Below, piece after piece: positions 2,957 through 7,973 of a stretch of DNA of 7,973 nt. Within the stretch, counting starts at the first letter, position 1, and the number at the start of each line of letters is the position of its first letter. The notes beneath the pieces were generated by a model. That model was not told where the DNA came from. It saw nothing but the letters and a program-made list of their open reading frames with translations, and searched no databases. Origin of the DNA: a virus (Duplodnaviria; Heunggongvirae; Uroviricota; Caudoviricetes); IMG/VR virus record IMGVR_UViG_2703719355_000008. One strand, written 5' to 3'. Position numbers and translations under genes: made by a program.

Positions 2957-3024
2957 TGCTGCGGGTGCTTGAGGCTGTCTGCCTCGGGCATGCCGCCGTA
3001 AGGCAGACAGAGAAAAGCCCCAGT

Positions 3025-3083
3025 TAACATTACGCGTCCGGCAAGACGCTTAACATTAATCTGAGGCCATATCTATGACTTGC
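3025..3083 (-). ncRNA. sok: Putative Sok-like antisense RNA (approximate bounds)
   Basis: Minus-strand promoter-like hexamers: -35 TTGCCT (complement of 3113-3118), 17-nt spacer, -10 TAACCT (complement of 3090-3095), giving a start a few nt inside mok and transcription into the hok leader. This matches the known hok/sok layout. The 3' end is not defined; a GCGTC/GACGC stem lies at 3043-3058. Confidence 0.35.
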
Positions 3084-3287
3084 ACATGTAGGTTAGCCTC
3101 TTACGTGCCGAAAGGCAAGGAGAAGCAGGCTATGAAGCAGCAAAAGGCGATGTTAATCGCCCTGATCGTCATCTGTTTAACCGTCATAGTGACGGCACTG
3201 GTAACGAGGAAAGACCTCTGCGAGGTACGAATCCGAACCGGCCAGACGGAGGTCGCTGTCTTCACAGCTTACGAACCTGAGGAGTAA
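3075..3287 (+). CDS. mok: Mok-like overlapping reading frame (70 aa), in frame with hok
   Basis: ATG at 3075 with SD-like TGAGG 8 nt upstream; N-terminal extension MTCTCRLASYVPKGKEKQA precedes the hok Met, as in chromosomal mok/hok pairs (from memory). Confidence 0.5.
   Translation: MTCTCRLASYVPKGKEKQAMKQQKAMLIALIVICLTVIVTALVTRKDLCEVRIRTGQTEVAVFTAYEPEE
3132..3287 (+). CDS. hok: Hok/Gef-family type I toxin (51 aa small membrane toxin)
   Basis: Translation MKQQKAMLIALIVICLTVIVTALVTRKDLCEVRIRTGQTEVAVFTAYEPEE carries the Hok/Gef signature (TM helix, TRKDLCEV, conserved C-terminus) and is near-identical, from memory, to E. coli HokD/RelF. AAGGAG SD at 3117-3122. Confidence 0.9.
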   Translation: MKQQKAMLIALIVICLTVIVTALVTRKDLCEVRIRTGQTEVAVFTAYEPEE

Positions 3288-3355
3288 GAGACCTGGCGGG
3301 GGAGAAATCCCTCGCCACCTCTGATGTGTCAGGCATCCTCAACGCACCCGCACTT

Positions 3356-3385
3356 AACCCGCTTCGGCGGGTTTTGTTCTTTTTG
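3356..3385 (+). terminator. Rho-independent terminator of the hok transcript (copy 1 of a 23-bp repeat)
   Basis: Stem CCCGC-TTCG-GCGGG (3358-3371) followed by a T-rich tract TTTTGTTCTTTTT. Confidence 0.75.
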
Positions 3386-3531: not shown

Positions 3532-3891
3532 ATGGCACTCACTGAATTCGGTAAGGCCGTTAGAAAAGCGAGGATCGATACTGACAGTACTCTTCTGACT
3601 ATGTCTCAAGAACTGGGCACTACGCCAGCGTTTCTTAGCGGTTTAGAAACTGGTAGCAAAAAAATACCTCTGAAGTGGGTTAAGAAGATTGATTCTTACT
3701 TCAAGGCCAAAGGTGTAGAAATTGAAGGGTTACAGGAGTTAGCGGCAGTTGCGAATGACTCAGTTCCAGTAAACGGTTTGTCTCAGCAACAGAAAATGCT
3801 TGTAGCGGGATTCGCTAAGTCGCAGTTTACGCCGGAACAGCTAAAGAGTTTTGCAGATTTATTGCAAAAGATTAATAACAATGAGGGGTAA
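3532..3891 (+). CDS. XRE/Cro-type helix-turn-helix transcriptional regulator (119 aa) with C-terminal extension
   Basis: ATG at 3532 with SD GAGGAT at 3521-3526. N-terminus (LTEFGKAVRKARIDTDSTLLTMSQELGTTPAFLSGLETGSKKIP) fits the HTH_XRE pattern. Stop at 3889-3891 is 2 nt before the next gene. Confidence 0.85.
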   Translation: MALTEFGKAVRKARIDTDSTLLTMSQELGTTPAFLSGLETGSKKIPLKWVKKIDSYFKAKGVEIEGLQELAAVANDSVPVNGLSQQQKMLVAGFAKSQFTPEQLKSFADLLQKINNNEG

Positions 3892-3893
3892 TT

Positions 3894-4370
3894 ATGTATC
3901 AAATGAGAGGTAACAGGGTGTCACCGATGCAAGAAGAAGAAATAGCCTACAGAGCTATAAACTTCTGTAATGCTATTGGTCTTACAGCCTCAAAGCGCAA
4001 AAGAAAGCGTTATGATATGTTCTTTGAAAGCCTGTCAATTTATGGGGTTACTCTTGACGTCAGGACCGACAAAGAGTGGGAGGCTCTGACGTATGATCTA
4101 ACTATCGGACATTGTGACCCCGCTTCTCTAACAATTACGGTTCCCAATAAAATATATGTGAATGCTTGCCTTGGGGAAGAGCATGCACTTGCTGTTATCT
4201 TCCACGAGCTAGGTCATTTGCTTCTTGGACACAAAGCAGTTTTACACTTTTCAGTTAAAGAACCTACTCGTATTGAGGATGCAGAATGGCAGGCAGATAC
4301 ATTTGCGGATATCGTACTGGAAACAATTGGCGTGAGAACACAACAGATGTCGTTCGATTTTTATATGTAA
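3894..4370 (+). CDS. ImmA/IrrE-family (COG2856-like) zinc metallopeptidase (158 aa)
   Basis: SD GAGGGG at 3884-3889. HExxH zinc-binding motif FHELGHLLLGH at residues 103-113 (nt 4203-4217), with size and partner arrangement typical of ImmA-like peptidases paired with XRE regulators. Confidence 0.8.
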   Translation: MYQMRGNRVSPMQEEEIAYRAINFCNAIGLTASKRKRKRYDMFFESLSIYGVTLDVRTDKEWEALTYDLTIGHCDPASLTITVPNKIYVNACLGEEHALAVIFHELGHLLLGHKAVLHFSVKEPTRIEDAEWQADTFADIVLETIGVRTQQMSFDFYM

Positions 4371-5082: not shown

Positions 5083-6138
5083 GTGCGGGTATTACTTCGA
5101 CCTGTTCTGGTACCGGAACTCGGGCTGGTGATCGTTAAGCCGGGCCGTGAATCCATGCCGGTATTCCACAATACCCGGGTACTGGTGGAGCCGGAACCGA
5201 AAAGCATGCGTAATCTGTCGTCCGGGGTCGTTCCTGCCGTTCGCCAGCCGCTGGCGGAGGATAAATCATTACTGCCATTTTTCAGCGACGAACGAGTGAT
5301 TCGTGCTGCTGGTGGCGCTGGCGCATTGTCTGACTGGTTACTGCGCCATGTTAAATCCTGCCAGTGGCCACACGGCGATTATCACCACAGTGAAACCGTC
5401 ATTCACCGTTATGGTACCGGCGCAATGGTGTTGTGCTGGCACTGCGACAACCAGCTGCGCGACCAGACCTCCGAATCACTCGGGCAACTTGCTCAACAAA
5501 ACCTGACATCCTGGATGATTGACGTCATCCGCCACGCAATAAACGGTACACAGGAGCGGGAGTTATCGCTGGCTGAATTATCCTGGTGGGCGGTCTGCAA
5601 TCAGGTAGCGGACGTATTGCCGGAGGCAGTATTACGTCGTTCTCTGGGATTGCGTGCGGAAAAAATCCGCTCGGTGTACCGCGAAAGCGACATCGTACCG
5701 GGAGAGCAGACCGCCACCAGCATACTGAAGCAGCGCACAAAAAATCTTGCGCTGCTGCCTCACGCCCACCAGCAAAACCCGCCACAGGAAAAGACGGTGG
5801 TCAGCATTGCCGTTGATCCGGAGTCACCGGCTCAGTATCTCCAGCGCCAGAAACCACAACGGGAAGAGATGCCTGTATACACGCGCTGGGTAAAAACGCA
5901 GAAATGCATGACGTGCGGTAATCAGGCAGATGATCCGCATCACATCATTGGTCATGGACTGGGAGGGATGGGAACAAAGGCTGATGATTTGTTTGTTATT
6001 CCGCTGTGCCGTAAATGTCATAACGAACTGCACGCCGGGGTAAAAGATTTTGAAGAAAAACACGGCAGCCAGCTGTTGTTGCTGATTCGTTTTTTAATGC
6101 ACGCGAGAAATTCGGGTGTCCTGAAGTGGAAAGCATGA
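5083..6138 (+). CDS. DUF968/YdfU-like phage protein with C-terminal HNH-like Cys/His motif (351 aa)
   Basis: GTG at 5083 with GGAGG SD 4 nt upstream. C-terminus CMTCGNQADDPHHIIGHG...PLCRKCHNELH resembles an HNH-type zinc-finger nuclease motif. Size and position next to Q match ydfU-type genes (from memory). Confidence 0.75.
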   Translation: MRVLLRPVLVPELGLVIVKPGRESMPVFHNTRVLVEPEPKSMRNLSSGVVPAVRQPLAEDKSLLPFFSDERVIRAAGGAGALSDWLLRHVKSCQWPHGDYHHSETVIHRYGTGAMVLCWHCDNQLRDQTSESLGQLAQQNLTSWMIDVIRHAINGTQERELSLAELSWWAVCNQVADVLPEAVLRRSLGLRAEKIRSVYRESDIVPGEQTATSILKQRTKNLALLPHAHQQNPPQEKTVVSIAVDPESPAQYLQRQKPQREEMPVYTRWVKTQKCMTCGNQADDPHHIIGHGLGGMGTKADDLFVIPLCRKCHNELHAGVKDFEEKHGSQLLLLIRFLMHARNSGVLKWKA

Positions 6139-6504
6139 ATGACTGAACGCATAGAATTTGTTTTGCCTTACCCGCCGACGGTGAACACCTACTGGCGACG
6201 TCGTGGCAGCACATATTTTGTGTCAAAAGCCGGTGAGCGTTATCGCCGGGATGTGGCACTTATTGTTCGCCAGCAGCGGCTGAAATTAAACCTGTCCGGA
6301 AGGCTGGCGATAAAGATTATTGCAGAGCCACCGGATAAGCGCCGCCGCGACCTGGACAATATCCTGAAGGCACCACTGGATGCGCTTACGCATGCCGGAC
6401 TACTTATAGACGACGAGCAGTTTGATGAAATCAATATTGTGCGCGGTCAGCTCGTTTCTGGTGGGCGGCTGGGCGTGAAGATTTACAAAATTGAAAGTGA
6501 GTGA
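6139..6504 (+). CDS. rusA: RusA-family Holliday junction resolvase (121 aa)
   Basis: Translation (PYPPTVNTYWRRRG ... PDKRRRDLDNILKAPLDALTHAGLLIDDEQ ... GGRLGVKIY) matches the RusA pattern including the DxD acidic motif. ATG sits directly after the upstream TGA. Confidence 0.9.
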   Translation: MTERIEFVLPYPPTVNTYWRRRGSTYFVSKAGERYRRDVALIVRQQRLKLNLSGRLAIKIIAEPPDKRRRDLDNILKAPLDALTHAGLLIDDEQFDEINIVRGQLVSGGRLGVKIYKIESE

Positions 6505-7067
6505 GCATAAATATGATATACCCGGAAATTACAGGCAAAAGCGGTGAGCATTTACGCCTGAAAACGCTGGAAAGTGTCTGGATCCAGGGGAAACTGCGTA
6601 TGTGGGGGCGTTGGTCGTATATTGGCGACGGTAAGACGGGAAATATGTTCAACCAATTACTGACCTCTAAAAAGCTGACAAAAACGGCAATTAACGAGGC
6701 GCTCCGGAGGATGAAAAAAGCGGGTCTGGACAAACCTGAACTTGAGGCTTTTTTGCGGGATATGATCAACGGCAATCAAAAAAGCTGGCTGGCACATTGT
6801 ACCGATTCAGAGGCGTTAATAATCGACAGGGTTATTGGTGAAGTACTGGCAGGTTATCCCGGGCTGCTCAATGTTCTGAGTCAGCGTTATGTGGGGCGGG
6901 GGATGACTAAGCGCAAAATGGCTGAACTGCTGAATGATGCACATCCGGAATGGAGTTTAAGAACCTGTGAAAGACGCATTGAGCATTGGCTAAAGGTGGC
7001 AGAATTTATTTTGTACAAACCAATGGTTATGGCTTTTGGTATAGAGAAAAAAATTATTGCTTTTTGA
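6501..7067 (+). CDS. Q-type late-gene antiterminator (phage 82/933W-like Q family)
   Basis: Position immediately after rusA and before a strong terminator. The segment RMWGRWSYIGDG...NQLLTSKKLTK resembles the ERWGAWAA...GLITSK block of this Q family (from memory). Start is either GTG 6501 (GTGA overlap with rusA stop) or ATG 6513. Confidence 0.7.
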   Translation: MSINMIYPEITGKSGEHLRLKTLESVWIQGKLRMWGRWSYIGDGKTGNMFNQLLTSKKLTKTAINEALRRMKKAGLDKPELEAFLRDMINGNQKSWLAHCTDSEALIIDRVIGEVLAGYPGLLNVLSQRYVGRGMTKRKMAELLNDAHPEWSLRTCERRIEHWLKVAEFILYKPMVMAFGIEKKIIAF

Positions 7068-7144
7068 CGTAAAAACTGCTTCAATTCCGGTAAGCTTCGC
7101 AAAGCTGTACCGCGAGGCGAATAGCAGACATGGACATTTGAAAG

Positions 7145-7168
7145 AGCCCGCTTTTTGCGGGTTTTTTT
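7145..7168 (+). terminator. Rho-independent terminator downstream of Q (candidate tR')
   Basis: Stem CCCGC-TTTTT-GCGGG followed by TTTTTTT; about 80 nt after the Q stop. A convincing pR' promoter was not found (TTGACG at 7064-7069 has no good -10). Confidence 0.7.
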
Positions 7169-7489
7169 ATGACTGAAAAACGGCACGGGGCGTTAAACGC
7201 GCTGGTGGTTGCGAATACCGGTCTTTCAACTTGCTGGCTTTTTCGACAAGAGTTATTGGTATGTCACGTTAACCGGAAAATGGAAAAAGGCATGCTAAAA
7301 CAGCAGGATATGACCGAAACCGCCAGAGTGGTGTTTAATGAATTAAGCGTCACCGAACCGGCGACCGCCGGGGAAATTGCGCAGAACACTTATCTTTCAC
7401 GCGAATGCTGCCAGTTAATACTGACCCAGCTTGTTATGGCGGGTCTGGCAGATTATCAGTTCGGTTGTTACAGACGCCTTCCTCAGTGA
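7169..7489 (+). CDS. Hypothetical small protein (up to 106 aa; start uncertain, alternative ATGs at 7280/7292/7310)
   Basis: ORF begins directly after the terminator T-run with no convincing SD at any candidate start; weak coding call. Confidence 0.3.
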   Translation: MTEKRHGALNALVVANTGLSTCWLFRQELLVCHVNRKMEKGMLKQQDMTETARVVFNELSVTEPATAGEIAQNTYLSRECCQLILTQLVMAGLADYQFGCYRRLPQ

Positions 7490-7500
7490 AGGCTTTTTTA
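7476..7500 (+). terminator. Putative weak rho-independent terminator
   Basis: Stem GCCTT-CCTCAGTG-AAGGC overlapping the stop codon, followed by TTTTTTATTT. Confidence 0.4.
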
Positions 7501-7614
7501 TTTGTGGTAATGGGCGGCTGGTGGGTGTTAGCGGCACCTGCCAGCCATCTGCTCATGCGTTGGGGTCACAAGCAAACCTCAGGCCCATCTGCTTTGCGCA
7601 AAAGCGGTATGAGC

Positions 7615-7862
7615 CTATCAGAGAAGTGCTTATTGATCTATGGCTAATACTGTAAAAATATCCAGTTGTGAGTTAATCAACGCTGATTGCCTGGAATTTA
7701 TCCAGACCTTACCGGAAAACTCTGTCGATCTGATAGAAAACTATCAGAGAAGTGCTTATTGATCTATGATTAATACTGTAAAAATATCCAGTTGTGAGTT
7801 AATCAACGCTGATTGCCTGGAATTTATCCAGACCTTACCGGAAAACTCTGTCGATCTGATAG
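7615..7862 (+). repeat. Tandem duplication (~126-bp period; copies 7615-7736 and 7741-7862) of the methyltransferase upstream region plus first 32 codons
   Basis: The two copies differ at only 2 positions (ATGGCT vs ATGATT at the start codon context). Each copy begins CTATCAG and ends CTGATAG, so the junction forms the palindrome CTGATAG-aaaa-CTATCAG. Confidence 0.9.
7640..7762 (+). pseudogene. Truncated duplicate of the methyltransferase 5' end (40-codon ORF, MANTVKISSCELINADCLEFIQTLPENSVDLIENYQRSAY)
   Basis: First repeat copy has its own ATG; it diverges from the intact gene at codon 33 and terminates at TGA 7760-7762, inside copy 2 upstream of the real start. Confidence 0.35.
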
Positions 7863-7973
7863 TCACAGACCCGCCATACTTTAAAGTGAAGCCCGAGGGC
7901 TGGGATAACCAGTGGAAGGGCGACGATGATTACCTGAAGTGGCTGGACCAGTGTCTGGCGCAGTTCTGGCGGG
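7766..7973 (+). CDS. N6-adenine DNA methyltransferase, 3'-partial
   Basis: ATG at 7766. Motif SVDLIVTDPPYF (DPPY catalytic motif of the N6A/N4C beta-class methyltransferases) at nt 7868-7879. ORF runs off the window end. Confidence 0.85.
   Translation, partial: MINTVKISSCELINADCLEFIQTLPENSVDLIVTDPPYFKVKPEGWDNQWKGDDDYLKWLDQCLAQFWR

Follow-up and report, generated by a model that had tools for sequence, protein, structure and literature searches.

The locus and its setting

We analysed the right-hand end of IMG/VR virus record IMGVR_UViG_2703719355_000008, a Caudoviricetes sequence of 7,973 nucleotides (the whole of this stretch is referred to as the window). Positions 7068 to 7973 carry a two-gene cassette, made up of a gene for a small predicted winged-helix protein and the 5' part of a gene for a DNA N6-adenine methyltransferase, and directly upstream lies a gene for a Q-type late antiterminator. 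An earlier reading of the letters alone (the original prediction) had described this segment as non-lysis cargo at the entry of a Q-dependent late operon. All of the features that it described are present, and three points were corrected. The features are as follows.

6501-7067, forward strand: Q-type late antiterminator gene of the DUF1133 family (Pfam, PHROG and phage records; relatives annotate the start at 6513)
7047-7096, forward strand: candidate late promoter pR', overlapping the Q stop codon (comparative alignment)
7097-7122, forward strand: conserved early transcribed block TCGCAAAGCTGTACCGCGAGGCGAAT, with a predicted hairpin GCUUCGC/GCGAGGC (alignment)
7139-7169, forward strand: intrinsic terminator tR', core GAGCCCGC-UUUUU-GCGGGUUU followed by a U run
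7170-7291, forward strand: region ahead of the winged-helix gene (its leader), which holds a Chi octamer at 7201-7208 and, at 7230-7266, a conserved block
7292-7489, forward strand: gene for the 65-amino-acid protein with a predicted winged helix (homologues, PHROG, AlphaFold2 and Foldseek)
7476-7499, forward strand: second, weaker terminator-like hairpin and T run, lying across the winged-helix gene's stop codon (pattern scan)
7510-7639, forward strand: conserved, structured leader RNA ahead of the methyltransferase (consensus fold of 38 aligned sequences)
7766-7973, forward strand: first 69 codons, intact, of a gene for a beta-class DNA adenine methyltransferase of the M.EcoGI/M.EcoGII family, which the window end cuts off

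The window comes from a lambdoid prophage and covers its right-hand early and late-control region, and its open reading frames (ORFs) 5083-6138, 6139-6504 and 6501-7067 matched DUF968/HNH, RusA and DUF1133, respectively, in Pfam. The DUF1133 match had an E-value of 3.7e-105 and was accompanied by a match to Phage_antitermQ (5.9e-8), while in PHROG the same ORF hit a family named 'anti-termination protein Q-like' (8.8e-81). Its homologues are called antitermination protein Q in several phage records, and a DUF1133 protein was assigned as Q in an HHpred-based survey of Stx phages (PMC8136144).

The best match to the window as a whole covered 83% of it at 97.6% identity. Across 6500-7973 the closest complete relative is Escherichia coli SLK172, at 99.7% identity. 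Matches to this region were found in 2,750 of the 5,426 complete E. coli genomes; 639 of these had 80% or more of it covered, and a single genome had up to 8 copies.

In its visible part, the methyltransferase belongs to the M.EcoGII family

The intact methyltransferase ORF begins at 7766 and reads MINTVKISS...IVTDPPYFKV. Catalytic motif IV, (D/S)PP(Y/F), is present near the N-terminus as DPPY (nucleotides 7868-7879, within IVTDPPY at residues 32-38), and 66 of the 69 visible residues (96%) are identical to those of M.EcoGII. The DPPY-type adenine methyltransferase that had been proposed is thus confirmed and can be assigned to a family. For this comparison the M.EcoGII sequence was taken from Table S1 of PMC11551740, a copy that contains a small number of optical character recognition errors. 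The SLK172 relative encodes a full-length enzyme of 352 amino acids that is 94% identical to M.EcoGII and carries the S-adenosylmethionine (SAM)-binding motif FFMGSGST; here the corresponding FxGxG position lies past the window end. Against the Pfam family N6_N4_Mtase (PF01555) the 69-residue fragment scored 22.1 bits, compared to a cut-off of 26.7, and the full-length SLK172 protein scored 151 bits (6.2e-44). The relatives found in the PDB are beta-class methyltransferases.

M.EcoGII is treated in Murray et al. 2018 (PMC5778455) as an orphan enzyme that methylates adenine in any sequence context. The paper states that it is not expressed in its native lysogen and is harmful when expressed, that no detectable methylation came from either M.EcoGI or M.EcoGII in the native lysogen, and that M.EcoGII is part of a very large family whose members reside in E. 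coli prophages, phage 1720a-02 included. A protective role for M.EcoGII has already been proposed there. Phage 1720a-02 matches the window at 90.9%. Since the closest characterised enzyme has no target motif, the N6-methyladenine made by the enzyme described here is probably context-free rather than bound to a motif, and we expect this allele to share the non-specific activity of its relative.

The methyltransferase has no restriction partner and forms a cassette with a constant neighbor

No cognate restriction endonuclease gene was found among the ORFs upstream in the window, in agreement with the original prediction, which saw no restriction partner there. The downstream check that it had proposed was run on related loci. 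In SLK172 the methyltransferase gene is followed by genes for tRNA-Ile, two tRNA-Arg, a SASA-family esterase, a holin, a lysozyme and a lysis protein, and in phiP27 by two tRNA genes and then stx2e. The downstream neighbors in O26 11368 and E2348/69 are similar to those of SLK172 and phiP27, while in Salmonella holin genes lie directly 3' of the methyltransferase. None of the related loci inspected, these included, has a nuclease gene 3' of the methyltransferase. A tRNA scan of the window found no tRNA gene, and the tRNA genes of the relatives map past the window end.

As the window stops 69 codons into the gene, it could be imagined that the methyltransferase is one half of an ordinary restriction-modification system with its nuclease just out of sight. 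We regard this as highly improbable: the next genes in the inspected relatives are tRNA or lysis genes and never a nuclease, M.EcoGII is presented as an orphan where PMC5778455 describes it, and a non-specific methylase would have no meaningful cognate nuclease.

The winged-helix gene adjoins the methyltransferase gene in 25 of 27 Enterobacterales loci. Start-to-start spacing in this set is 342-348 nt, or 320-340 nt in three of the loci; one of the two exceptions to the pairing is cut by a contig end and the other is a decayed remnant. Every aligned cassette is preceded by a hairpin and a T run, with the promoter region of the resident Q type further upstream, and several Q types are represented. 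The placement of the cargo at the late-operon entry is borne out by this alignment, as the cassette lies directly behind the promoter-terminator unit in every locus aligned. In DUF1133 loci without the cassette the same slot holds holin genes, tRNA genes, TolA-like genes or pertussis-like toxin genes. Because other DUF1133 loci fill the slot otherwise, the cassette is one option among several for the first cargo of the late operon.

Some of these loci are of interest in their own right. ADP-ribosyltransferase toxin genes occupy the cassette slot in E. coli STEC1575 (locus L015, 2202-3420) and in phage Rac-SA53 (locus L019, 3498-4729). The toxins are pertussis-like or scabin-related, are accompanied by an AB5 binding subunit, and lie behind the same promoter-terminator element and a DUF1133 Q gene. 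In E. coli OkiPb01684 (locus L007) the promoter-terminator element (1801-1921) is located about 830 nt 3' of the DUF1133 gene and is followed by a tRNA-Met gene. A truncated ORF6N-domain pseudogene lies between the DUF1133 gene and this element, which suggests an insertion between Q and its promoter. Decayed cassettes also occur: the methyltransferase gene is frameshifted in strain 2017C-4109 (locus L012, 2392-3449), a leader with no methyltransferase behind it is found at 3657-3812 of locus L042, and at 6362-6694 of locus L127 a frameshifted winged-helix gene is followed by an unrelated ORF of 237 amino acids.

A candidate late promoter and a terminator precede the cassette

Originally, no pR'/qut promoter could be identified, and our consensus scan was likewise blank. 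A candidate was nonetheless placed at 7057-7096 by aligning the Q-distal flanks of 12 E. coli DUF1133 loci and then those of Rac-SA53, Klebsiella and Providencia phages. It consists of a run of A (7047-7053), a -35 element TTGCTT (7057-7062), a 17-nt spacer with TG at 7077-7078, and a -10 element TTCAAT (7080-7085). Five bases further on is a second -10-like hexamer, TAAGCT (7091-7096). The arrangement is kept beside the DUF1133 genes in all of the loci and phages named; at the -10 position the sequence reads TATCTT in Rac-SA53 and TATAGT in Providencia. The second hexamer conforms to TAnG(C/A)T, with the T, A, G and final T invariant in 10 of 10 sequences of the cross-genus alignment. We therefore treat 7047-7096 as a candidate pR' and 7091-7096 as a candidate sigma-dependent pause element. 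A further possible -35 sequence, TTGACG at 7064-7069, was rejected: it is not kept in O26 or E2348/69 and has no -10 element at a workable spacing.

Among E. coli DUF1133 loci the block at 7097-7122 hardly varies, and in Klebsiella and Rac-SA53 it diverges jointly with Q. It is a candidate for the Q-loading region and would also form the 5' hairpin of a short terminated RNA.

The presence of Q and a tR'-like terminator directly ahead of the cargo, which had been noted from the letters, stood up to analysis. The hairpin at 7139-7169 has a predicted energy of -18.2 kcal/mol (z = -6.1), and 0 of 200 shuffled sequences were equally stable; a simple terminator pattern scan had overlooked it. A hairpin and T run occupy this place in all of the related loci, whatever their Q type. 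Homology with phiP27, which has a different Q type, begins at the terminator, and this fits an exchange of Q and promoter as one module and of the cargo as another.

A transcript running from about position 7092 to the terminator would be an RNA of approximately 76 nt. Searches of Rfam over 7068-7240 returned nothing but sub-threshold, terminator-driven matches. One of these was isrK (RF01394) at 7094-7167, and membership in that family was ruled out by the score (19.8 bits, compared to a gathering threshold of 50). Homology to StxS was also rejected, as StxS comes from a 258-nt transcript of a different Q type.

The small gene encodes a conserved protein with a predicted winged helix

The small ORF of the cassette had been considered weakly supported. 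This does not hold for the gene at 7292-7489: its product has 345 homologues at E <= 0.001, in Escherichia, Shigella, Salmonella, Klebsiella, Citrobacter, Buttiauxella and others, and it is a member of phrog_331 (8e-36). A longer ORF of 106 amino acids starting at 7169 was discarded as the gene; its start is not conserved, because the ATG is missing in phiP27.

Alignment-based AlphaFold2 modelling of the 65-amino-acid protein gave a pLDDT of 92.5, with helices at residues 9-16, 26-33 and 37-49 and strands at 53-56 and 59-62. The predicted structure is thus three helices with a beta-hairpin wing, as in a winged helix, while a single-sequence prediction was uninformative (pLDDT 54.8). Foldseek aligned the model to the N-terminal winged helices of MarR, IclR and O-methyltransferase proteins with TM scores of 0.7-0.78. 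The sequence profiles TrmB and Rrf2 remained under their cut-offs for this protein (TrmB, 15.3 compared to 25.6 bits). On the strength of the model, we consider the protein to have a winged-helix, DNA-binding fold.

Upstream of this gene, the block at 7230-7266 consists of CTTGCTG, 17 nt, TATTGG and TATGTCAC; the second half has the general form TAT(C/T)(T/G)G. The block is kept from Escherichia to Proteus while the sequence around it varies and that between its halves does so freely, and it could be a weak promoter. The predicted fold of 7170-7291 is insignificant (z = -0.2).

This block bears on a different view of the cassette, in which it is a moron with its own promoter, switched on in the lysogen, and the methyltransferase acts epigenetically on the host rather than as a late anti-restriction enzyme. 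The CTTGCTG, 17 nt, TATCTG pattern is conserved 5' of the winged-helix gene in all genera, the winged-helix protein could regulate it, and epigenetic effects had been raised in the original prediction. Yet the block is a poor match to sigma-70 promoters (each hexamer agrees at 3 of 6 positions, and the -10 hexamer does not end in T), and the promoter scan made no call there. A terminator-like hairpin and a putatively start-sequestering leader lie between the block and the methyltransferase, and the account of M.EcoGI and M.EcoGII in PMC5778455 describes enzymes without detectable methylation in the native lysogen and harmful on expression. We consider a moron of this kind quite improbable, and favor a cassette served by the late promoter.

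The terminator-like hairpin in question, at 7476-7499 (called by the pattern scan at 7476-7493), has a predicted energy of -8.9 kcal/mol (z = -1.6). Its stem is altered on both sides in other genera, GCCTTC/GAAGGC as against GCCTCC/GGAGGC.

A conserved structured RNA leads the methyltransferase gene

The 150-nt spacer between the two genes (7490-7639) is conserved above the surrounding coding sequence and is nearly constant in length. The methyltransferase ATG follows the invariant 21-mer of the leader by 129-131 nt in 113 of 121 IMG/VR occurrences. To obtain a consensus fold we aligned 38 distinct leader sequences, which comprise an E. coli-type clade and Proteus-type phages recovered via the Proteus methyltransferase. 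The elements of the fold, all on the forward strand, are the following.

7510-7514 with 7552-7556: stem A
7516-7529 with 7533-7546: hairpin B, with a Chi octamer within it in Enterobacteriaceae
7564-7568 (GGUCA) with 7634-7638 (UGAUC), and 7570-7572 with 7629-7631: helix C, long-range, reaching the start-codon region
7581-7584 with 7613-7616: helix D
7591-7595 with 7601-7605: hairpin P4
7550-7557 with 7567-7574: alternative helix P3, which uses the upstream strand of helix C

Standard pairs fill 95.4% of the cells of the consensus fold, compared to 28-47% when the partners were slid. Changes on both sides of a pair were found in 63 cells as against 18.3 +/- 3.9 in shuffled alignments, and 0 of 500 shuffles reached the observed number. 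Helix C shows the compensatory triplets AAG/CUU, GGA/UCC and GAG/CUC, and single-sequence folding of the window and of SLK172 likewise yielded this helix. A covariance model of the leader matched 7489-7651 with 135.3 bits (E = 1.4e-27) and had no matches in DUF1133 loci without the cassette. An earlier model with helices P1, P3 and P5 fitted less well than the second (88.8% vs 95.4% paired); it is a possible alternative conformer, and one pair of helix P3 covaries via C-G, U-A and A-U. Across all families of Rfam 15, 7490-7639 had no match even at E <= 10, and no description of either the leader RNA or the winged-helix partner was found in Rfam or in the literature searched.

One could argue that the spacer is conserved as DNA, in the form of a Chi site, operators for the winged-helix protein or a promoter. 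The Chi octamer at 7517, which forms the 5' arm of hairpin B, is invariant in Enterobacteriaceae, a near-perfect DNA palindrome, GCTTTAGCGCTAAAGC, occurs in several genera, and the cassette itself codes for a protein with a predicted DNA-binding fold. In the Proteus-type phages, however, Chi is lost and hairpin B is rebuilt with entirely different arms, both of which change so as to restore pairing; the hairpin and not Chi is therefore the conserved feature. Many of the conserved pairs are G-U, which pair in RNA only and thus point to an RNA rather than a DNA element, and the long-range helix that reaches the start-codon region shows covariation of three kinds. A DNA-level element is for these reasons unlikely, and we continue with a structured RNA.

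There is no ordinary Shine-Dalgarno sequence before the methyltransferase, and UGAUC sits where the 3' extension of a Shine-Dalgarno sequence would be. UGAUC is complementary to GAUCA near the 3' end of the 16S rRNA; the upstream strand of helix C, GGUCAC or GAUCAC, resembles that same 3'-end segment. We infer that the leader could work as a translational on/off element for a toxic enzyme. It is plausible, if somewhat short of probable, that the spacer is an undescribed cis-regulatory RNA and a translational switch, in which GGUCAC or GAUCAC pairs with UGAUC and a mutually exclusive upstream helix frees UGAUC. Such a switch may span phages of Escherichia, Salmonella, Klebsiella, Enterobacter, Buttiauxella, Proteus and relatives, and it would possibly be triggered by the co-encoded winged-helix protein, by SAM supply or by co-transcriptional timing. 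If this is true, the switch would allow a methylase that is toxic and promiscuous to be made only during a short period late in infection.

A shorter variant of the leader was seen in IMG/VR contigs L196-L211. It keeps the AAAUGG...GGCUGGUG...CACCAGCC hairpin and is without the remainder of the element. These leaders precede methyltransferases that are 71-73% identical to the Proteus enzyme, and the covariance model gave them just 30-33 bits.

The start of the methyltransferase gene occurs twice in the window

The original prediction overlooked that the 5' end of the methyltransferase gene is duplicated in the window. Positions 7615-7736 are repeated at 7741-7862, with 98% identity over 122 nt and AAAA in between, so that 126 bp are added. 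The features, again on the forward strand, are these.

7615-7736: repeat copy 1, comprising the last 25 nt of the leader and methyltransferase codons 1-32, with the ATGGCT allele
7640-7762: truncated first methyltransferase start, an ORF of 40 codons, with its TGA at 7760-7762, 3 nt before the second ATG
7737-7740: AAAA filler at the junction, between the inverted flanks CTGATAG and CTATCAG, forming an 8-bp hairpin
7741-7862: repeat copy 2, with the ATGATT allele, as in O26 11368 and E2348/69

The copies differ at two adjacent positions, 7643-7644. Copy 1 is part of a segment (7560-7736) that is 100% identical to SLK172. Copy 2 is identical to the O26/E2348/69 allele over the repeat, and 7863-7973 matches the SLK172 allele. 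The first ATG, at 7640, opens the 40-codon ORF, to which the PHROG methyltransferase families match at residues 1-32 only; past copy 1 this frame reads on into sequence from upstream of the gene. The duplication starts on its left side (7615) within helix D, so that the intact ORF is without the 5' half of the leader.

All close relatives are single-copy: in every top match the query of 1,474 nt aligns over 1,348 nt. No contiguous match to the junction was found in the 5,426 complete E. coli genomes, and GTDB species genomes, JGI metagenomes and IMG/VR contain no exact copy of it. Plasmid matches have the region at single-copy length with no duplication, and in none of the 113 IMG/VR occurrences does the methyltransferase start lie 126 nt further from the leader.

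This rarity raises the possibility that the duplication is an artefact of assembly or of chimeric reads, in which two prophage alleles may have been collapsed. None of the collections searched contains the junction, no microhomology was found at the duplication edges (they are joined by a 4-nt AAAA filler between inverted 7-mers), copy 2 bears the allele of a different prophage lineage, and the region can be present up to 8 times per genome. Nevertheless, the repeat is clean, its flanks are colinear with the relatives, and there is no other sign of a chimera at this point of the window. An artefact is a real though minor possibility.

A genuine duplication could have left the methyltransferase non-functional, by cutting the ORF off from its start signals and leader; alternatively, the gene could be broken further on. 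Either would make this a decaying prophage remnant. The first copy is truncated at codon 40, the intact copy has lost the 5' half of the leader, and decayed cassettes exist elsewhere (the 2017C-4109 frameshift, and the L042 and L127 leaders without a methyltransferase). On the other hand, copy 2 retains 25 nt of native upstream sequence that include UGAUC-AUG, the stop codon of the stump is 3 nt from the ATG and favors reinitiation, and up to the window end the open frame is that of functional alleles. Loss of function is unlikely. With a leader that acts as a switch, the duplication would be a natural variant that partly bypasses it.

A model for late, restriction-protective expression

Given the gene identities and synteny described above, we think it likely that 7068-7973 is the promoter-proximal cargo of a lambdoid late operon, in which a DUF1133 Q gene, pR' and tR' are followed by a two-gene cassette with a partnerless methylase of a promiscuous family. 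The position of the cassette, as read from the alignments, fits Q-dependent late expression. In the lysogen, transcription from the pR' candidate would stop at tR' and release the RNA of approximately 76 nt. After induction, Q-modified polymerase would pass both tR' and the weaker terminator at 7476-7499, and this read-through would transcribe the genes for the winged-helix protein and the beta-class N6-adenine methyltransferase. The most likely role of a methylase without a restriction partner would be to methylate replicating phage DNA heavily before it is packaged, and the methylated progeny could then escape many restriction systems at once.

The methylase would be kept off in lysogeny because it is harmful to the host. 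Silencing could be layered, with two terminators, no normal ribosome-binding site and the folded leader RNA (7510-7639). Within the leader, the UGAUC 5' of the start codon would be paired with the upstream GGUCA, and the exclusive helix 7550-7557/7567-7574 could release it. In this genome the duplication would leave the native leader driving the 40-codon stump, and the intact gene, 3 nt past the stop codon of the stump, would be translated probably by reinitiation or from its own copy of UGAUC-AUG.

Several observations weigh against this model. The consensus promoter scan of 6400-7973 gave zero matches, the -10 element TTCAAT is without the usual A at position 2, and the -35-like block 5' of the winged-helix gene could be an independent promoter. 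With 69 codons visible, the domain for target recognition (about residues 160-237) and the FxGxG motif fall past the window. Two leader folds both covary, and the leader sequences represent few clades, so some of the covariation counts are phylogenetically inflated. Finally, no second case of the duplication was found, and it could stem from faulty assembly.

The element itself, the methyltransferase cassette, was known before: it is nearly identical to other members of a family that has been characterised and is very common. As originally stated, the finding changes little: orphan methyltransferases of the M.EcoGII type in E. coli prophages have been annotated thousands of times. M.EcoGII is also a commercial reagent. 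Existing annotation does not extend to the duplication, to a winged-helix partner that is constant, to the pair of terminators or to the leader RNA. The analysis would give the silence of M.EcoGII in lysogens a concrete reason, in that it is the first cargo behind a late terminator, with a second terminator and a leader that hides the start. The leader RNA and the winged-helix partner may also show how phages meter out a dangerous enzyme.

Comparison with known systems

M.EcoGII and M.EcoGI of E. coli O104:H4 C227-11, as characterised in Murray et al. 2018 (PMC5778455), resemble the enzyme of the window in being beta-class, prophage-borne orphans of the same family with an N-terminal DPPY. They differ in that the N-terminus alone is visible here and the 5' end of this copy is duplicated. 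Text searches of that paper returned no description of a Q-proximal position, a winged-helix partner or a leader RNA, and a wider literature search found nothing specific on the in vivo role or late-operon position of M.EcoGII-like genes.

The same two genes, in the same order and with the 150-nt spacer, are found as L23 and L24 of phiP27 and as the 'hypothetical protein + DNA methylase' pair that Stx2a-converting phages have between Q and stx, at 90-95% nucleotide identity from the terminator onward. These phages have other Q types, and their stx genes follow tRNA genes, whereas the Q of the window is of the DUF1133 type.

With the late control region of lambda (pR'-qut-6S RNA-tR') the window shares a Q gene, a putative promoter that overlaps the 3' end of Q, a second -10-like hexamer, and a short terminated transcript (predicted here) with an intrinsic terminator ahead of the late genes. 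In lambda pR', a -10-like element just past the start site induces a sigma-dependent pause at which Q loads, and the short 6S RNA is 194 nt long. In contrast, the promoter, pause site and Q binding in the window are predictions, as is its short RNA of approximately 76 nt. Its Q is a DUF1133 protein, related only weakly to the Pfam family Phage_antitermQ, and its first late genes are the methyltransferase cassette while those of lambda are lysis genes.

Short RNAs that arise just past Q are known from two other systems. IsrK lies directly downstream of a Q-like gene of Salmonella Gifsy-1 (PMC4825925). Like the predicted RNA of the window, it directly follows a Q gene, is of similar size (74-77 nt) and has a 5' hairpin and a terminator. 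The Rfam match is weak, and at 19.8 bits the window RNA remains far from the 50-bit cut-off. StxS of Stx phages is also made by termination just past Q and illustrates that such by-products can act as small RNAs, but it arises by processing of a 258-nt transcript, and its sequence is unrelated to that of the window RNA.

Lastly, the cassette recalls the controller (C) proteins of restriction-modification systems, in which a small protein of the helix-turn-helix type is encoded just 5' of a potentially toxic DNA-modifying enzyme. C proteins have an Xre-type helix-turn-helix, whereas the fold predicted here is a winged helix; the window has neither a nuclease gene nor a recognisable C-box 5' of the small gene.

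Other features of the window

A perfect tandem array of the 12-nt unit ACAGATAAAGAT occupies positions 1-71 (5.9 copies, 100% matches), just 5' of ORF 85-672. It may be an iteron-like origin repeat; 'phage replisome organizer' is among the RefSeq names listed where related genomes match the window as a whole.

A hok/sok type I toxin-antitoxin locus is present at 2963-3287. The sok RNA is an Rfam match of 114 bits at 2963-3137, and a Hok-like peptide (MKQQKAMLIALIVICLTVIV...) is encoded inside ORF 3075-3287. Just 3' of hok is a further sub-threshold match to isrK (3296-3377; 27.2 bits, E = 0.009, cut-off 50), which outscores the one behind Q and may merely be a terminator.

An ImmA/IrrE-type metallopeptidase with the motif HELGH is encoded at 3894-4370 (Pfam Peptidase_M78, 2.4e-5). 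Its gene is overlapped by the stop codon of the preceding ORF, 3532-3891, which has no Pfam match and whose product looks like a helix-turn-helix protein. Both belong to a nin-like region and share their strand with the late genes.

The Chi octamer (GCTGGTGG) occurs 6 times in the 7,973 bases, compared to approximately 0.24 occurrences expected by chance. Four of these are on the forward strand (1743, 5308, 7201 and 7517) and two are on the reverse strand (5714 and 5766).

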